From Candidatus Lustribacter sp. (GTDB lineage: Bacteria > Vulcanimicrobiota > Vulcanimicrobiia > Vulcanimicrobiales > Vulcanimicrobiaceae), in contig OZ255842.1 in assembly GCA_965277805.1 (NCBI GenBank), forward strand, positions 1,568,001-1,632,000: DNA of 64,000 bases. The letters run 5' to 3'. The notes under the pieces are model-generated. The model saw only the letters and a list, made by a program, of their open reading frames with translations, did not search any database and had not been told where the DNA came from. The translations under genes and the position numbers were made by a program. Shown piece by piece: positions 29,968-35,875 of this stretch (position 1 is the stretch's first letter; the number at the start of each line of letters is the position of its first letter).

Positions 29968-31269
29968 CTATACGCTTTTGGTTGCCGGAACGCGCTTGGA
30001 CCGTTCGATCAAGCGATCGATGGTCTTTGTGCGCACGATGCCGTCGACGAGCGCGCCGATGTTCCGGCCCAGCAACTCGAGGATCTTTTCACGCGGCTGC
30101 CCGTACTGGCGCGCGAGCGCACCGAGCTCCGCTTCGAGGTCGGCGGGGGTCGTCTCGATCTTCTCCCGCTTGGCGATTTCCTCGATCAAGAGCGTGGTCT
30201 TCACGCGCCGCTGGGCTTCCTCGCGGAAGTCTTCCCGGATCGTTTCCTCGGACTTCTCGCTCTGCTTGAGGTACTCGTCCCACGTGATGCCCATGCGCGC
30301 GATGTACTGCTTCGACTCGTCGAGCAGGCCGTCGATCTCGCGCTCGACCAGAACCGCAGGCAGCGGAAAATCGTTGGCGGCAACGAGTTTGTCGAGCAGC
30401 TCGGTGCTGATCTGACGGCGCGCTTTTTGGGCGGCGACGCCGTCGAGCCGCGTGCGCAGTTCGTCTTTGAGCTCGGCTAGGGTCTGGTGCTGTGAGACGC
30501 GCTTGGCGAACTCATCGTCGAGTTCCGGCAGCTCGGGCTCCTTGATCTCGTGTACGGTGATCGTGAAGGTCGCGTCCTTGCCGGCGAGCTCCGTTGCGCC
30601 GTACTCGTCCGGGAACTTCACGTTGATGTCGCGCGTCTCGCCGGCCTTCATGCCGACAATGCCGCTCGCGAAGCCCGGGATGAACCGCTCCTCGGAGATC
30701 TCGGCTTGCTGGCCTTCGGCCGTGCCGCCCTCGAAGGGCACGCCGTCGATCTTGCCGGCGTAGTCGATGGTGGCCGTGTCGCCGAGCTGGACCGGCCGTT
30801 CGACCGGAACGAGGGTCGCGGCGTTCTTGCGCATCGTTTCGAGCGCCTGATCCATGTCGTCGTCGCCGGCTTTCTCCGGGACGTCCTCGACTTCGATTCC
30901 CTCGTAGGGTGCCGGTTCGATCGGCGGACGCACGGCCACGACGGCCTTGAAGCGCATCGGCTGGCCCTCTTCTTCGGGCAGCATTTCCATTTCGGGACGC
31001 GCCAACGGCTCGATGGCGTGCTCTTTGACCGCTTCGGCGTACTTCTCGGGCACGAGGTCTTCGAGGGCGCGATCCATGATGGTGCCGACGCCGTACGTGT
31101 TCTCGAAGATTTTGCGCGGGACTTTGCCCGGACGGAAACCCGGGATCTTCGCGCTGCGAACGAGTTTGCGGAACGCGGCGTCCTGTGCCTTACCGAACTC
31201 TTCGGGGGAGATCTGAATCTCGAGTTCGACCTGCGTCGGATCGAGCTGTTTCATCGTCGTTGCGGACAC
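29968..31269 (-). CDS. tig: Trigger factor
   Basis: IPGFRPGKVP signature, FKBP domain; start trimmed to GTG 31269 (GGAG SD). Confidence 0.96.
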   Translation of the reverse strand: MSATTMKQLDPTQVELEIQISPEEFGKAQDAAFRKLVRSAKIPGFRPGKVPRKIFENTYGVGTIMDRALEDLVPEKYAEAVKEHAIEPLARPEMEMLPEEEGQPMRFKAVVAVRPPIEPAPYEGIEVEDVPEKAGDDDMDQALETMRKNAATLVPVERPVQLGDTATIDYAGKIDGVPFEGGTAEGQQAEISEERFIPGFASGIVGMKAGETRDINVKFPDEYGATELAGKDATFTITVHEIKEPELPELDDEFAKRVSQHQTLAELKDELRTRLDGVAAQKARRQISTELLDKLVAANDFPLPAVLVEREIDGLLDESKQYIARMGITWDEYLKQSEKSEETIREDFREEAQRRVKTTLLIEEIAKREKIETTPADLEAELGALARQYGQPREKILELLGRNIGALVDGIVRTKTIDRLIERSKRVPATKSV

Positions 31270-31324
31270 GTCGTTGGTTCTCCGGGGATGAGGAGCAAAT
31301 TTCTGTCCGAAATTTGTCCCAAGT

Positions 31325-31355
31325 ACGAACGGCGGGCTCGTGGCCCGCCGTTCGT
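31325..31355 (-). terminator. 13-bp hairpin between tRNA-Gly and tig (processing stem or leaky terminator)
   Basis: ACGAACGGCGGGC-TCGTG-GCCCGCCGTTCGT, no clear U tract. Confidence 0.5.
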
Positions 31356-31359
31356 CAAC

Positions 31360-31434
31360 TGGAGCGGAAGACGAGATTTGAACTCGCGACCCTCGCCTTG
31401 GCAAGGCGATGCTCTACCGCTGAGCTACTTCCGC
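31360..31434 (-). tRNA. tRNA-Gly(GCC)
   Basis: GCGGAAGTAGCTCAGCGGTAGAGCATCGCCTTGCCAAGGCGAGGGTCGCGAGTTCAAATCTCGTCTTCCGCTCCA. Confidence 0.97.
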
Positions 31435-31480
31435 GTTCCCGGACGCTACACGTACCACGAGCGTCCGGGTCAACCCTCGG

Positions 31481-31509
31481 ATTGTATGCGCCCGCCCCAA
31501 CCACGTCAA
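31481..31509 (-). promoter_or_regulatory. sigma70 promoter for tRNA-Gly/tig-clpP-clpX
   Basis: TTGACG-N17-TACAAT. Confidence 0.75.
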
Positions 31510-31534
31510 GCGAACCGGGTCCGGGAGCAGATTC

Positions 31535-31616
<82 letters not shown>

Positions 31617-31741
31617 GTGGCCTTGTTCTTCGCCTGCTTGCTTTGGGTTGGCATCCGCTCTGCCACGGCCTAAAACGGGGCGCGGAAGCATAGAAGGTGC
31701 ATCCTTGTTAGGAGCGAGACAGTTTAGGGCATGAGATACCT

Positions 31742-31939
31742 ATGACATTCGCGCAACTGTTCTCCGCACTTTTCAACCTCGGCGCGACGACCAACTTCTG
31801 GAACTCGACGACGGCAGCCAAAGACTTCTGGCTGGTGTTCTCGGCGGCCGTGGTGGCCGGGATCATCTACGTGAGCCTCCGTACGGCACGGCACCGTCGC
31901 GAGCACACGCATCCCTTCGGGCACAGCCTCCAGCGCTAA
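31742..31939 (+). CDS. Small hypothetical membrane protein
   Basis: 65 aa, one TM segment then basic/His tail, followed by terminator. Confidence 0.55.
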   Translation: MTFAQLFSALFNLGATTNFWNSTTAAKDFWLVFSAAVVAGIIYVSLRTARHRREHTHPFGHSLQR

Positions 31940-31955
31940 CGGAGGCCGAGGATGA

Positions 31956-31989
31956 GAAAAGGGACGGAGTTCGATCTCCGTCCCTTTTC
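31956..31989. terminator. Bidirectional intrinsic terminator
   Basis: GAAAAGGGACGGAG-TTCGAT-CTCCGTCCCTTTTC. Confidence 0.85.
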
Positions 31990-31995
31990 GTTATC

Positions 31996-32070
<75 letters not shown>

Positions 32071-32082
32071 AGGCCGTTCCTA

Positions 32083-32111
32083 AAAATACCGGTGCGCGGT
32101 CTCATAGTCAA
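32083..32111 (-). promoter_or_regulatory. sigma70 promoter for tRNA-Lys(CTT)
   Basis: TTGACT-N17-TATTTT. Confidence 0.65.
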
Positions 32112-32180
32112 GTTCCCGCCTGTCGCTCGCACGCGCAACTCGGGAACGCCGGATGTGTTTGACGAAGGGTGTCCGTACCG

Positions 32181-32253
32181 GGGACGGTAGCTCAGCCGGT
32201 AGAGCAGCGGCCTTTTAAGCCGTTTGTCGGGAGTTCGAGCCTCCCCCGTCCCA
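32181..32253 (+). tRNA. tRNA-Lys(TTT), CCA not encoded
   Basis: GGGACGGTAGCTCAGCCGGTAGAGCAGCGGCCTTTTAAGCCGTTTGTCGGGAGTTCGAGCCTCCCCCGTCCCA. Confidence 0.95.
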
Positions 32254-32621
32254 CAGACTTATCGCTTGGCCGACAGATGACTGTTCACTGTCGGCCTTTT
32301 GATATAACCAAGGTCTAGTCCGGTAGCTACCGCACTCTGCCGCAGTCTTCCGTCGATGGCAATTAGCGCAACGCACCACGCATTTGTCCATTTCCGCGCG
32401 GAGCTTTTGCAGCGCCGTCCCGCCGAAAATCATCCGGCTGATTGCGGCAAATTTCGTGCCGCGTACATGATCAAAGTCCAAGACCAGGATGTCGCTTTCA
32501 TGGCAGTCCACACATGGATGTTCCACCAGATGCTCAAGAACGACGCGGCGATTTCGTTCCGTATAACCTAATAGAATTCATCGAACGGCTTTGTCTCGCC
32601 ACAGCGAGGGCAACGTTTCAT
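32215..32621 (-). pseudogene. Disrupted Zn-ribbon/HNH nuclease (copy 1)
   Basis: ATG 32621 gives MKRCPRCGETKPFDEFY-stop; another frame resumes YTERNRRVVLEHLVEHPCVDC..LDFDH..KCVVRCANCHRRKT; middle segment seen in paralogs is missing. Confidence 0.8.
32268..32300 (+). terminator. Intrinsic terminator after tRNA-Lys(TTT)
   Basis: GGCCGACAG...CTGTCGGCC-TTTT. Confidence 0.7.
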
Positions 32622-32642
32622 GTCCAGATCTTCTCAAATCGT

Positions 32643-32662
32643 TGTGCCACCATTATGGCACA
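32643..32662. promoter_or_regulatory. Palindrome TGTGCCA-N6-TGGCACA upstream of HNH copy 1
   Basis: TGTGCCACCATTATGGCACA, 22 bp from ATG. Confidence 0.7.
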
Positions 32663-32686
32663 GCAATTGAACGGATGCTTGCACTA

Positions 32687-32720
32687 AAAAAACAGCCTCG
32701 CGCTACGCGGAGGCTGCCTT
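32687..32720 (-). terminator. Intrinsic terminator of tRNA Pro-Arg-His operon
   Basis: Minus strand CAGCCTCCGCGTAGCGCGAGGCTG-TTTTTT. Confidence 0.8.
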
Positions 32721-32726
32721 TCATAC

Positions 32727-32804
32727 TGGGGTGGCTGACCGGGATCGAACCGGCGACCTTCGGAATCACAACCCGACGCTCTAACCGACTGAGCTACAAC
32801 CACC
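32727..32804 (-). tRNA. tRNA-His(GTG) with G-1
   Basis: GGTGGTTGTAGCTCAGTCGGTTAGAGCGTCGGGTTGTGATTCCGAAGGTCGCCGGTTCGATCCCGGTCAGCCACCCCA. Confidence 0.96.
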
Positions 32805-32848
32805 ACGGGGACGACCGACGCATTTTCGGGGCGCCCCGGTTCGTACCT

Positions 32849-32925
32849 TGGTGCGCCCGGAGGGAATCGAACCCCCATCGTTCGGCTTAGAAGGCCGATG
32901 CCTTATCCAGTTAGACCACAGGCGC
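32849..32925 (-). tRNA. tRNA-Arg(TCT)
   Basis: GCGCCTGTGGTCTAACTGGATAAGGCATCGGCCTTCTAAGCCGAACGATGGGGGTTCGATTCCCTCCGGGCGCACCA. Confidence 0.96.
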
Positions 32926-32933
32926 TCGAGAGT

Positions 32934-33010
32934 TGGTCGGGATGACCGGATTTGAACCGATGGCCCTTGCGTCCCAAACGCAATGCTCTACCAAACTGAG
33001 CTACATCCCG
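32934..33010 (-). tRNA. tRNA-Pro(TGG)
   Basis: CGGGATGTAGCTCAGTTTGGTAGAGCATTGCGTTTGGGACGCAAGGGCCATCGGTTCAAATCCGGTCATCCCGACCA. Confidence 0.96.
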
Positions 33011-33458
33011 TTAAGAGACTTATTCCTTTTACCCACCCGAACTGCCTCGCAGTCCTCCTTCGGTGGCAGACCACACATCTGACGGCGCACTTAGCCATCT
33101 CCTGTTTGAGCTCCTCAAGGCCGCGGCCAGCGCGGCTCAGCTGCGAAAGTACATGCTTCTTCTCGTGCGGATTTATGTGATCGAACTCTAAAACGACCGG
33201 ATCAGTTTCTCCGCAATCCACACACGGGTGAGTTCGCAAATACTCTACGACAAACGCGCGATTGCGAATTCGATAGCGCCTTCGCGCTTCGCGGCGGCGC
33301 GCATTGTGAGCTTTTGCGTTCTTGACGTAGTGACGACGGCAATAAAGCGACATGCACGGGCTGCAGTATGATGCGATCCGCCCAGCTTTGGAGACCGTAA
33401 AGCTTGATAAGGGCAAGTCCATATCGCACTTCGGACAATGTTTGAGATTCTGTTCCAT
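32988..33458 (-). CDS. Zn-ribbon/HNH-type nuclease (copy 2), stop codon inside tRNA-Pro
   Basis: CPKC..CSPC N-terminal Zn ribbon, basic helix, HPCVDCGE.DPVVLEFDH..KCAVRCVVCHRRRT; TGATG coupling to copy 3. Confidence 0.85.
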   Translation of the reverse strand: MEQNLKHCPKCDMDLPLSSFTVSKAGRIASYCSPCMSLYCRRHYVKNAKAHNARRREARRRYRIRNRAFVVEYLRTHPCVDCGETDPVVLEFDHINPHEKKHVLSQLSRAGRGLEELKQEMAKCAVRCVVCHRRRTARQFGWVKGISLLTGCSSVW

Positions 33459-33898
33459 CACGCGCCCAACATCCATCCGAACTCCTTTGCCGTACGCTTA
33501 CGATGGCAGCGAGCACATCGGACGACGCATTTTGCGATCTCCGCTTTTAAGCGATCAAGCGACCAACCTTGTCGAATGAGGTTCGAGACTTCGTTTGCTT
33601 TCGTCGACCTATCGATATGGTCAAAGTCAAGTACGACAGGATCACATTCACCGCAGTCGATACATGGATTCGTCCGTAAATATTCAATCACATACTGTCG
33701 ATTTCTGGCATAGTATCGCCGACCCGACTCACGGCGGCGAAGTTTGTATGGCGCAGGATCTTTCACATAGTGATTACGTGAATAAATCGATTGGCACGGT
33801 TTACAATATGCCAAACACTTGCCGTTTTGGCGCTTGTTGAATTTTTCTTGCGGCAGTTCGCACTTGCACATGCCGCAACGTTTTGTTTCATCACTCAT
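33458..33898 (-). CDS. Zn-ribbon/HNH-type nuclease (copy 3)
   Basis: CGMC..CKPC, NPCIDCGECDPVVLDFDH..KCVVRCARCHRKRT; ATG 33898. Confidence 0.85.
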   Translation of the reverse strand: MSDETKRCGMCKCELPQEKFNKRQNGKCLAYCKPCQSIYSRNHYVKDPAPYKLRRRESGRRYYARNRQYVIEYLRTNPCIDCGECDPVVLDFDHIDRSTKANEVSNLIRQGWSLDRLKAEIAKCVVRCARCHRKRTAKEFGWMLGA

Positions 33899-33922
33899 GG
33901 CAAAGCCATGGTATCGAAATCG

Positions 33923-33942
33923 TGTGCCACCTGTATGGCACA
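33923..33942. promoter_or_regulatory. Palindrome TGTGCCA-N6-TGGCACA upstream of HNH copy 3
   Basis: TGTGCCACCTGTATGGCACA, 25 bp from ATG. Confidence 0.7.
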
Positions 33943-34270
33943 AGCGATTTACTATTGCGTTATACTATCGTGATGATTGCAGCGGCAAGAATATCGGTTC
34001 GTTAATATCTGTCCCTTTCAATCTAGAACTCGACGTTTGCAACCCTAATTTCACAGTCGCTGAAACTCGCGCGCCACATCAAGCATTAATGCGCAGTTGA
34101 ACGGTCAGACCTCAATCGGTCGCTGCCCTTTTTGTAAAGCGGTCGACTCAAGCTTCTAAACTCATAGATCTCCTAGCCGGGCATCCATCAGACGTTCCCG
34201 CTCCGAGCGCCCGTACCAGGCACACCACCAGGCCCGTCTTCTCCCGCCAACGGCTGTTGTGTTCTGCGCC

Positions 34271-35266
34271 ATGCATGGGACGCTCGATAGCAGCGAGAAA
34301 CCCGCGTCCGTGGGCACGTCGCGCAGCCTCGTTGCCATCGTATTGTTTTTCGTCCTGACGCTCGGCATTTCGTACGGCGCCGACGATTTGCGCGCGCCCC
34401 AGCGGGACGAATCCCCATCCGGCCGCTCGTCCCCAACGCCGATTCCGTATTTCAGCTACGACCGCAAAGCCGTCTTCACGATGGCCCTCGGCACCGACAC
34501 CGCGACCGCATCGAAAATAACAAATGCGCTGGCCGATCGGTTGATCGCGCTGAGCGGCAAGCTCCAACACGCATCCGCGCCGCGGTCCGACGGCCACTAC
34601 TGGTTCGTGCCGCAGGGCGACTGGACCATCGCCGACTACCAGAACCAATGCGCGAAGGACCCGGCGCACACGCTCGGCGCGTATATCGTCTTGCCGCCGT
34701 CGCGCAGCGACCACACCGAAAACTCGCTCGTGTTCATCCGCACGCGCACCACGGTCCGGTTCAGCTTGGTCGTTGCGGTCTGCCATCCGGCGGGCGACCA
34801 GACGGACGCGACGAGTTCCGTCACCTGGGTGAGTGAAAGCGCGAGCGGCGAGGCCATGCGCAGCGAAATCGAGATCTTTCCGCTGGCCCTACTGACGTCG
34901 CTCTATCTCGCGTTCTCGCCGCAGCGCACCTACCAAACCGTCACGACGCAAGCCTTCCCGACGCCCAATCCATTGCCGGCCGAAGGCGCGCGAGCCTCAA
35001 CGCAAACCACCGCATCGAGCGTCTTGAACCCGTCCGGCTCCGCAACGCTGCAAGGCGGGATCCTCGGCGCTTTTGCCGGCAGCGGCATCGGCAGCACCAC
35101 CGGCGCCACGGGTTCACCCGACCTGCAATTCGCGAAAGCTGCCGACGATGCAGTCGGCAAATTGCTCGAACCGATCAAGGCGCGCTGCGCACCCTACGTC
35201 GGAACCGCCGCAGCGCCGCCCGACGGCTACGCCTTTTGCACGTGGTTCGCAGCGCCGGCGCGCTGA
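34271..35266 (+). CDS. Hypothetical exported protein
   Basis: Hydrophobic N-terminal segment, paired Cys, host-like codon usage; start uncertain. Confidence 0.6.
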   Translation: MHGTLDSSEKPASVGTSRSLVAIVLFFVLTLGISYGADDLRAPQRDESPSGRSSPTPIPYFSYDRKAVFTMALGTDTATASKITNALADRLIALSGKLQHASAPRSDGHYWFVPQGDWTIADYQNQCAKDPAHTLGAYIVLPPSRSDHTENSLVFIRTRTTVRFSLVVAVCHPAGDQTDATSSVTWVSESASGEAMRSEIEIFPLALLTSLYLAFSPQRTYQTVTTQAFPTPNPLPAEGARASTQTTASSVLNPSGSATLQGGILGAFAGSGIGSTTGATGSPDLQFAKAADDAVGKLLEPIKARCAPYVGTAAAPPDGYAFCTWFAAPAR

Positions 35267-35272
35267 CGGAAC

Positions 35273-35875
35273 CTAACCGGCTTTGCGGCTGCGCAATCCG
35301 TGCAGCAGCGCGGCGACCGCGCGATAGCGATGACTCACCGCATTCTTTTCCGCTTCGGTCAGTTCCGAAAACGACTTCTGCGCTGCCGGATACACGAAGA
35401 TAGGATCGAAGCCGAAACCACGTTCGCCGCGATCGCGCAGTGCGATCGTTCCGCCCACGGAAGCATCTACCGCGAGCTCGCGGCCGTCTTCATCGATAAA
35501 GTGCAGATAGCACACAAACCGCGCGCTGCGATCGCCGTCCTCAATACGCGACAACTCCGAGAGCACGTACTCGCGCCGCTGCGGCCACGTCAACGCCGCG
35601 CCGCCGTAATACGCCGTCACCACACCGGGCCGCCCGTCGAGCGCGTCGATCTCCAGTCCCGAATCATCCGCCAGCACCGCCGCCTCAATGCCCGCCGACA
35701 ACAGCTGTTCCCGCAGCGCATGCGCCTTCAGCGCCGCGTTTTCCGCATAGTCCGTCTCGCCTTCGACGACATCACGATACCCGGGAAACTCGAGCAGTTC
35801 GATTCCCGTGCCCTCGAGGAGCGCTTGGAACTCTGCCCGCTTACCGGCATTTTTTGAGGCGAGATAGACGCGCAA
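35273..35875 (-). CDS. rdgB: Non-canonical purine NTP pyrophosphatase (Ham1)
   Basis: ASKNAGK, ENA..KA, ADDSGL, GFGFDPIF, SHR. Confidence 0.95.
   Translation of the reverse strand: MRVYLASKNAGKRAEFQALLEGTGIELLEFPGYRDVVEGETDYAENAALKAHALREQLLSAGIEAAVLADDSGLEIDALDGRPGVVTAYYGGAALTWPQRREYVLSELSRIEDGDRSARFVCYLHFIDEDGRELAVDASVGGTIALRDRGERGFGFDPIFVYPAAQKSFSELTEAEKNAVSHRYRAVAALLHGLRSRKAG

Follow-up and report, generated by a model that had tools for sequence, protein, structure and literature searches.

In a 64,000-nucleotide (nt) stretch of the genome of Candidatus Lustribacter sp. (GenBank assembly GCA_965277805.1, contig OZ255842.1, positions 1,568,001 to 1,632,000; hereafter the window), two nearly identical palindromes stand directly before genes of the HNH endonuclease family, which raises the question of whether such a palindrome belongs to the HNH gene or is a regulatory site that the host also uses elsewhere. 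Palindrome 1, TGTGCCACCATTATGGCACA, lies at 32643-32662 on the minus strand and is the predicted activator box before the remnant of HNH copy 1; palindrome 2, TGTGCCACCTGTATGGCACA, lies at 33923-33942 on the minus strand and is the predicted activator box serving HNH copies 3 and 2 and perhaps also the tRNAs that lie downstream of them. An earlier note on this DNA had described both 20-mers as having perfect 7-bp arms and a conserved flank, and the sequence confirms the arms at these positions as well as the AAATCG that each palindrome has towards its gene (32636-32641, with a T after it, and 33917-33922); the flanking ACGATTT is common to copies 1 and 3. The distances of 22 and 25 to the ATGs (32621 and 33898) are correct as coordinate differences and correspond to 21 and 24 intervening bases. 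The note went on to propose a cis element that travels with the HNH gene, and we agree that this is a cis-acting DNA element. We consider it probable, however, that the palindrome is the promoter box of a WYL-type, LexA-independent activator of the DNA-damage response and is shared across a host regulon.

We defined the palindrome as TGTGCCA-N6-TGGCACA (20-mer) and its core as GTGCCA-N6-TGGCAC (18-mer). With up to two mismatches allowed, exactly two palindromes were found in the window, compared to a mean of 0.08 in dinucleotide shuffles, of which one in 100 reached two. The 5,533,281-base, single-contig genome contains two exact 20-mers, both of them in the window, plus four sites with one mismatch, and the reversed control of the 20-mer pattern had no match across the same genome. 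The exact 18-mer occurred at six genome sites (0-1 for everted, direct or reversed controls), and all six were located upstream of gene starts.

The earlier note had suggested that the genome be scanned for the motif and the adjacent genes listed, since frequent occurrence before unrelated genes would mark a host regulon site. We scanned this genome with a weight matrix built from 27 HNH-upstream sites, all of them from other genomes. The top matches stood before HNH copies 3 and 1 and at eight sites outside the window. Matches were present upstream of recA (929574, plus strand; Pfam RecA), ssb (3523214, minus strand; Pfam SSB), a gene for a 197-amino-acid (aa) RNase_T/DnaQ-like exonuclease (3534646, plus strand; Pfam RNase_T), a PDDEXK_5 nuclease gene of the PD-(D/E)XK type (2456842, minus strand; Pfam PDDEXK_5), a 177-aa gene that represents a distant fourth HNH gene (3522603, minus strand), and a 152-aa gene of unknown family (2826516, minus strand), as well as in the intergenic regions between a GGDEF-EAL gene and a small Cys-rich open reading frame (ORF) at 915107 and between lexA and a LysM-domain gene at 3634096. 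A motif before recA and other DNA-repair genes is what would be expected of a damage promoter served by a WYL activator.

The same association was found in related genomes. We compared recA loci from 30 of them, 25 belonging to f1 and f2, which are related families of Eremiobacterota, and five to f3, a sister family in the same class. A box with at most two mismatches was located 53-151 nt before recA in 24 of the 25 f1 and f2 loci and in none of the five f3 loci. In ten other genomes, exact boxes were found upstream of genes encoding LexA, SSB, an RNase_T exonuclease, a WYL paralogue and a UvrD-type helicase, along with several genes of unknown family, and in one genome (G025:C81, L194) an exact box has an MT-A70 methyltransferase gene on one side and a gene for a BglII-like restriction endonuclease on the other. 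Because the same box precedes recA, ssb and other repair genes, we interpret it as the probable docking site of a host DNA-damage regulator.

These results bear directly on the possibility that the element belongs to the HNH unit, as an autoregulatory operator, an element-end hairpin or a 5' RNA hairpin. The box is indeed kept upstream of diverged HNH homologues, as the earlier note had anticipated (27 HNH starts among 80 loci examined below, plus genomes of the same genus), and the ACGATTT shared by copies 1 and 3 likewise fits an element that moves with its gene. However, the box also stands before recA, ssb, the exonuclease and PDDEXK_5 genes, lexA and other unrelated genes, here and in relatives, and it is absent from HNH homologues outside this order (for example, those of Limnocylindria, the candidate phyla radiation [CPR] and family f3). 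Because the box precedes unrelated genes, including recA in 24 of 30 relatives' loci, the notion of an element private to the HNH gene or to one element family gives way to that of a host regulon site, and an autoregulatory operator of the HNH protein is not needed to explain it. We regard an HNH-owned element, in any of its three forms, as highly improbable.

The geometry of the sites also argues for a promoter element rather than a hairpin. We took 22 exact sites from the ten other genomes, chosen regardless of what follows them, and read each in both orientations (44 reads). The sequence TAnnnT occurred exactly 10 nt after TGGCAC in 15 of the 44 reads, representing 14 of the 22 sites, compared to 0-2 occurrences at every other gap between 0 and 29. 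At recA, TAnnnT was present at gap 10 in 19 of 24 sites, and nAnnnT was found at this gap in 24 of the 27 HNH sites from other genomes. In the Lustribacter genome itself, nAnnnT faces a gene at gap 10 in nine of ten sites, the lexA/LysM site being ambiguous; examples of the hexamers are TACTGT at recA, TACCAT at copy 3 (33908..33913, minus strand, with the copy 3 ATG 9 nt later), GAAGAT at copy 1 (32628..32633, minus strand, with the ATG 6 nt later), CATAGT at ssb and GATACT at the exonuclease gene. Taking the gap-10 hexamer as the -10 element places TGGCAC at about -28 to -23, with GTGCCA further upstream at about -40 to -35; palindrome 2 would then span about -41 to -22. The -35 position then falls on the variable middle bases, for which there were 16 distinct spacers among 17 distinct recA sites and 16 among 22 distinct HNH sites. 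A consensus scan detected no sigma-70-type -35/-10 pair at either HNH promoter. The box thus keeps a fixed distance to the -10-like hexamer in promoters that have no -35 element. At several genes, copy 3 among them, the ATG comes 6-9 nt after the hexamer, so that these mRNAs would be leaderless or nearly so, and the palindrome itself, located upstream of the hexamer at a fixed 10-nt gap, is probably not transcribed.

Variation within the arms has the same bearing. At pair 5 of the arms, the 22 distinct HNH sites carry C-G in 11 cases and A.G in ten, the changes being one-sided, and arm positions 2-4 hardly vary. The promoter-proximal arm is perfect in 17 of the 22 sites, whereas the distal arm is perfect in two. 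We observed no compensatory, hairpin-type covariation in the arms of these sites, and the pattern is that of a DNA sequence read by a protein, not of a conserved stem. A structured RNA or DNA hairpin was therefore rejected: the arms conserve sequence rather than pairing, the box stands upstream of the -10-like hexamer, and Rfam gave no match at the palindrome. A search of positions 31000-35000 against Rfam at E≤1 returned tRNAs and weak chance matches only.

The sequence TGGCAC equals the -24 consensus of sigma-54 promoters, and this identity raised the possibility that the right arm is such a -24 element. A sigma-54 promoter would be expected to have a GC at -12, which is not conserved here (TTCGA, TTTGA, TTATA and GGTGA are found instead), and would have no use for the conserved left arm. 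Moreover, a search for Sigma54_DBD found none in this single-contig genome, which is 95% complete, while the same search was positive in four known genomes. With neither an rpoN-type DNA-binding domain nor a conserved GG-N10-GC, we rejected this explanation, whose probability we consider close to nil.

The presence of the palindrome before recA, ssb and often lexA itself could suggest that it is simply the LexA (SOS) box of this lineage. Its distribution, however, does not follow LexA. LexA is present in 23 of 24 f1 genomes, four of five f2 genomes and all 11 f3 genomes, although only one of the 11 f3 genomes has an exact box, and G009, an f1 genome that lacks the box, has LexA as well. All 30 lexA loci compared, from the three families together, have classical GAAC-N4-GTT(C/T) boxes in front of the gene; the palindrome, with at most one mismatch, is additionally present before lexA in 15 of 22 f1 loci, none of four f2 loci and none of four f3 loci. 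The two motifs also occur side by side at single promoters near 2826516 and 3634096. At 2826516, inspection by eye revealed the palindrome and its -10 followed by a TTGACT-N17-TACAAT promoter with GAAC-N4-GTTC in the spacer, an arrangement indicating that the two systems can act in tandem. At the other locus (3633410-3634600, L157), lexA and the LysM-domain gene diverge from an intergenic region that contains two GAAC-N4-GTT(C/T) boxes, resembling the lexA-yneA arrangement of Bacillus. We conclude that the palindrome is distinct from the LexA box and that its being a lineage-specific version of it is very unlikely; its presence before lexA in 15 of the 22 f1 loci suggests, as far as the motifs go, cross-talk between the two systems.

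We then asked which protein might bind the box. The genome encodes two WYL-domain proteins, 1.5 Mb apart. The candidate, WYL#1 (genome positions 2551780-2552793, minus strand), comprises 338 aa from its likely start and contains WYL (2.6e-19) and WCX (1.3e-13) domains. Its best relatives of solved structure are PafB (in a mycobacterial RNA polymerase complex), PafBC, DriD and PafC, with E values from 5e-10 to 2e-7; in the ranking of PDB matches, a PafB chain came first and a PafC chain ninth, and DriD chains matched at E of about 1e-8. The sequence and the PafB alignment, which starts at residue 73, point to an N-terminal helix-turn-helix (HTH) domain, and WYL#1 would thus have the HTH-WYL-WCX architecture of the characterised regulators.

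The distribution of WYL#1 matches that of the box. Among related genomes, WYL#1 was found in 22 of 24 in f1, five of five in f2 and none of 11 in f3, and the exact box was found in 19 of 24, five of five and one of 11, respectively. In an even sample of the phylum, WYL#1 was present in 69 of 71 f1 genomes, the single f2 genome and none of 78 genomes from 19 other families, and the exact box was present in 47 of 71, one of one and eight of 78. Counted as sites against the reversed control, this corresponds to about 154 vs. 17 in f1 and f2 and 9 vs. 43 elsewhere. The second protein, WYL#2, does not follow the box (12 of 24 f1, one of five f2 and nine of 11 f3 genomes). Two genomes flagged as unpublished, G015 and G036, are included in the related-genome tallies for recA, the exact box, WYL#1 and LexA, and G036 also in the phylum-wide sample; no claim is based on these two genomes alone. 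Since genomes that have WYL#1 often lack an exact match, the exact 18-mer is an insensitive proxy for the site; the recA gene of genus g30, for instance, carries ATGCCA...TGGCAC. Three f1 genomes had no match to WYL#1. Two of these, G009 and G110, have no box before recA, and in G110 we noticed GAAC-N4-GTTC by eye at that place; the third, G155, is the exception to the co-occurrence of regulator and motif.

Taken with the promoter geometry, these results suggest the following mechanism. The palindrome would form the upstream half of a composite promoter, GTGCCA-N6-TGGCAC-N10-TAnnnT, in which the box occupies the place of a -35 element. A homodimeric HTH-WYL-WCX factor, for which WYL#1 is the candidate, would most likely bind both half-sites and, when activated upon DNA damage by single-stranded DNA (ssDNA), would recruit housekeeping RNA polymerase to a promoter that has only a -10 element. 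The HNH genes would then be members of a LexA-independent DNA-damage regulon that here also includes recA, ssb, the DnaQ-like exonuclease gene, the PD-(D/E)XK nuclease gene, the fourth HNH gene and probably lexA. We infer the identity of the binding protein, activation rather than repression, the ssDNA or damage signal and the position of the transcription starts.

Several observations weigh against this interpretation. The site at 915107 and the 152-aa gene have no evident link to DNA repair. Pfam did not detect the N-terminal HTH of WYL#1. G155, an assembly of 210 contigs, has no WYL#1 match, yet keeps a box with two mismatches before recA, and many f1 genomes that do have WYL#1 contain no exact 18-mer, as in 15 of 25 genomes of genus g30. 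The link between WYL#1 and the box is a co-occurrence among related, non-independent genomes, so that the counts overstate its independence. The -10 hexamers before the HNH genes (TACCAT and GAAGAT) are weak. In three sequencing runs listed as RNA, one of them by guess, a fraction of about 0.05 of the sampled words was found, probably from tRNAs, and contigs of this kind cannot show transcription starts. We did not see a box in front of the gene for WYL#1, and we therefore rejected autoregulation of WYL#1 through the box. In f2, moreover, a distant WYL paralogue that is 27% identical to WYL#1 over the WYL-WCX region does carry the box upstream and could be the true regulator, or a second one, in that family. 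In three f2 genomes (G026, G028 and G025; L186, L188 and L192), a single exact box is common to this WYL-WCX paralogue and a divergent gene of 205-216 aa whose family is unknown, and a -10-like hexamer stands at gap 10 in either direction; by this arrangement the paralogue could be an autoregulated second regulator. Finally, a palindrome in this position, covering the -35 region, would suit a repressor as well.

This last point deserves particular attention. A repressor other than LexA could occlude the -35 region of repair promoters until damage relieves it; a perfect palindrome spanning about -40 to -23 is in the classic position for such an operator, and the content of the regulon links it to DNA repair only and says nothing on the sign of regulation. 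However, these promoters have no recognisable -35 element, and repressed promoters normally need no help of the kind that an activator would give. The rigid N10 spacing to the -10 hexamer matches the motif described for the activator PafBC (PMC8635444), and the only factor found to track the box is a WYL protein, whose characterised relatives are, in the accounts of DriD and DdaA, activators (PMC13004042, PMC12392091). We consider a repressor operator unlikely, though it retains some weight, and we continue to favor an activator box.

Known damage systems of the WYL type share features with this box, each in a different way. The motif of PafBC is given as tGTCgg(N10)tA(N3)T (PMC8635444), and in an older form as tTGTCRgtg-8nt-TAnnnT (PMC5656591). 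Its promoters contain a "-26 element" (-23 to -28) and lack a -35 element (PMC8635444), and PafBC is described as adapting the housekeeping sigma factor (PMC8635444; PMC11804915). The Lustribacter promoters likewise have a hexamer at about -28 to -23, N10, TAnnnT and no -35. As in the PafBC (RecA-NDp, or P1) system of Actinobacteria, the motif stands before recA and repair genes in parallel to a separate LexA/SOS system, and PafBC shares the WYL and WCX domains with the candidate WYL#1. In contrast, the hexamer here is TGGCAC, not GTCgg, and a second, inverted half-site makes it a palindrome, whereas the RecA-NDp motif is described as non-palindromic and PafBC as a heterodimer (PMC6789036). 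PafBC is moreover the product of two adjacent genes, while here there is a single candidate gene with the other WYL gene 1.5 Mb away, and neither an adjacent pafB-pafC pair nor the non-palindromic GTC motif of PafBC proper was found.

DriD of Caulobacter crescentus is described as a homodimeric activator of winged HTH, 3HB, WYL and WCX domains (wHTH-3HB-WYL-WCX) that acts in an SOS-independent damage response; its site, ATACGAC(N7)GTCGTAT, is a pseudo-palindrome over the -35 position at a fixed distance to the -10 element of promoters without a -35 (PMC13004042). The Lustribacter site is also palindromic, covers the -35 position and keeps a fixed distance to the -10 in promoters with no -35, but its sequence, GTGCCA(N6)TGGCAC, differs from that of DriD, as do the phylum and the members of the regulon, and by target site these genes do not belong to a DriD regulon. 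DdaA of the Moraxellaceae is reported to be a WYL activator acting at CGWCA-N5-TGWCG before recA, other repair genes and restriction-modification systems; its authors state that this promoter arrangement differs from the PafBC -26 type and that DdaA has replaced SOS in the Moraxellaceae (PMC12392091). An inverted repeat before recA and repair genes is common to both systems, and the box between the MT-A70 methyltransferase and BglII-like genes in G025 recalls the restriction-modification link, but the motifs differ, and LexA is retained here whereas SOS was replaced there. The LexA (Cheo-type SOS) box is also palindromic and also serves DNA-damage genes; unlike the box described here, it has the sequence GAAC-N4-GTTC and is bound by a repressor, and it forms a separate set of sites in this genome. 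As judged by sequence, the Eremiobacterota box combines the PafBC spacing of the proximal half-site with the palindromic form of DriD and DdaA sites in a sequence of its own.

A literature search, which was not decisive, retrieved no paper on a DNA-damage regulon in Eremiobacterota, and no bacterial regulon with this box was among the matches listed. The present analysis offers a first, testable picture of the DNA-damage response in this uncultured phylum, in which two systems appear to operate in parallel, one using the classical LexA box and the other a WYL-type activator box of its own sequence, and in which the predicted regulon is rich in nucleases. The combination of PafBC geometry with a DriD/DdaA-like palindrome helps to relate these systems to one another. 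It also provides a caution: what looks like a motif moving along with its gene may turn out to be a site of a host regulon, into which mobile or semi-selfish genes plug, in this case the tRNA-linked HNH genes and, in one relative, many TnpB copies.

The latter were found in G021, which contains 21 exact boxes, most of them with identical middle six bases. We retrieved eight of these (L176-L183), and in seven an ORF that we read as an IS605-type OrfB/TnpB begins 22 nt later; the one ORF tested in Pfam matched HTH_OrfB_IS605 and OrfB_IS605. The box and hexamer precede many copies, and a multi-copy insertion sequence in this genome thus seems to carry a promoter of the damage regulon type.

The HNH locus itself reads, on the minus strand, copy 3, copy 2, three tRNA genes, a hairpin with a run of U, palindrome 1 and copy 1. 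Copy 3 (33458..33898, minus strand) encodes 146 aa with an N-terminal Cys4 zinc ribbon and an HNH, endonuclease VII-like core, and it matches PHROG 2255 at 1e-34. Copy 2 (32988..33458, minus strand; 156 aa from an MEQ start) has no palindrome and, as the earlier note recognized, is coupled to copy 3, its start codon overlapping the copy 3 stop codon by one base (TGATG). Directly downstream of copy 2 on the same strand lie tRNA-Pro(tgg), tRNA-Arg(tct) and tRNA-His(gtg) (32727..33010), and the copy 2 ORF extends 23 nt into tRNA-Pro. An intrinsic terminator follows tRNA-His (32686..32718, minus strand), consisting of a GC-rich hairpin and U7 (-24.6 kcal/mol, z -5.5); a consensus promoter/terminator scan missed it due to its bulged stem, and folding revealed it. 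Copy 1 (32215..32621, minus strand), one of the two HNH units of the earlier note, is a pseudogene. Compared to its orthologues in G002 and G007, it has lost 115 nt internally, which removes the second CxxC knuckle and causes a frameshift with a TAG after 17 codons; the tail of its ORF overlaps tRNA-Lys(ttt) on the opposite strand. The promoter box of this pseudogene nevertheless remains perfect.

The HNH proteins matched no Pfam or NCBIfam model, but they matched the "HNH endonuclease" family PHROG 2255, at 1e-34 and 9e-34. Among 21 aligned HNH sequences, C79, D81, C82, D93, H94, C128 and H132 are invariant, and the CxxC...DH...CxxCH pattern is kept in all 21 relatives. By these signatures, the proteins are predicted HNH endonucleases of the endonuclease VII-like type, with a beta-beta-alpha-metal core, a DH...N...CxxCH motif and a flanking CxxC. 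The three copies are the only ones that tblastn detected in the genome with these queries (E≤0.01). The N-terminal zinc ribbon typical of these proteins recurs in the 177-aa protein encoded at 3522603 (hhalign, 95% probability), whose C-terminal segment matched no model but reads by eye as an HNH-type motif. The G+C content of the HNH genes is 48-54%, compared to 64.7% for the window and 64.3% for the genome, and this low value is compatible with a foreign, phage-like origin.

HNH homologues were present in 16 of 41 related genomes. In four genomes of the same genus (G002, G003, G006 and G007) and in G020, GTGCCA-N6-TGGCAC is located 20-30 nt before the HNH start codon, and its middle six bases vary. 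A single HNH protein used as the query against genome contigs confirmed no relative; an alignment query, with one genome per species, yielded 558 relatives, and we kept the best 80 loci. Scoring the box at no more than two mismatches over the 12 arm positions, we found it upstream of 27 HNH gene starts in these 80 loci from other genomes. Twenty-four of the 27 were in contigs with Eremiobacterota titles (counting Eremiobacteraeota, Vulcanimicrobiota, Cybelea, Aquilonibacter, Lustribacter, Elarobacter and Baltobacteraceae), two had Acidobacteriota titles, and one was titled "uncultured bacterium". Among the same loci, no box was found before HNH homologues of Limnocylindria, CPR, Planctomycetota or Actinomycetota.

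A more general property of the family is its association with tRNA genes. In 76 of the 80 loci, distributed over many phyla, a tRNA gene lies 3' of the HNH gene, or of the last gene of a tandem pair, on the same strand, its start falling between -40 and +150 nt relative to the point where the protein match ends. The tRNAs that follow are Arg (43), Pro (32), Gly (17), His (4) and Lys (3), and the HNH ORFs often read into them. Such loci span Eremiobacterota, Limnocylindria, CPR, Acidobacteriota, Planctomycetota, Micromonospora and others. HNH genes have been described in mycobacterial tRNA clusters (PMC6582537), and T4 SegB is described as a free-standing homing endonuclease gene in a tRNA cluster (PMC2330249). 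These, like the genes studied here, are nuclease genes embedded among tRNAs; the present HNH genes differ in that they stand directly 5' of the first tRNA and share its strand, that they are found on the chromosomes of many phyla and that their synteny is conserved in Eremiobacterota. Putative HNH endonucleases induced by DNA damage have been reported in M. tuberculosis (PMC8151990).

This raises the question of whether the tRNA-leader HNH genes could serve the damage response as working effectors, as opposed to being selfish passengers with a borrowed promoter. The idea rests on the position of the HNH family, which in at least eight phyla is fixed immediately 5' of a tRNA gene for Pro, Arg, Gly or His and on its strand, and on its placement, in Eremiobacterota, under the predicted WYL damage activator. 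We think it rather improbable. If it were true, damage would switch on a nuclease co-transcribed with essential tRNAs, and this might trigger recombination or gene conversion at tRNA loci or, alternatively, couple tRNA supply to genome integrity.

In f3, where the box is absent from the HNH genes, these genes appear to use another promoter. The loci that we read by eye (L012, L015-L018, L020, L021, L027 and L028) carry a conserved promoter of the type TAGACA-N17-GTGATAAT, which ends so close to the ATG (a few bases) that the mRNAs would be leaderless. The spacer of several of these promoters contains a possible operator, a stretch resembling GAAC-N4-GTGCG.

We also noted an inverted repeat, CATGGC-TTT-GCCATG, that encloses the start codon of copy 3 (33893-33910, minus strand) and overlaps both the predicted -10 and the ATG. 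G006 has a variant changed on both sides, CATAGC-TTT-GCTATG, at the same place, and other genomes have ATGCGAC-GCTA-GTCGCAT or ATGCGAT-TATC-ATCGCAT around the HNH start codon (L038, L040, L042, L043 and L045). We considered a leader hairpin that hides the ATG and rejected it, since most of the 5' arm would not be transcribed given the predicted -10. In genomes of the same genus, about 10-50 nt separate the rdgB stop codon from the box before copy 3; here an insertion consisting of a 335-aa ORF (34259-35266, plus strand) and about 300 nt of non-coding sequence stands between that box and rdgB (35273-35875).

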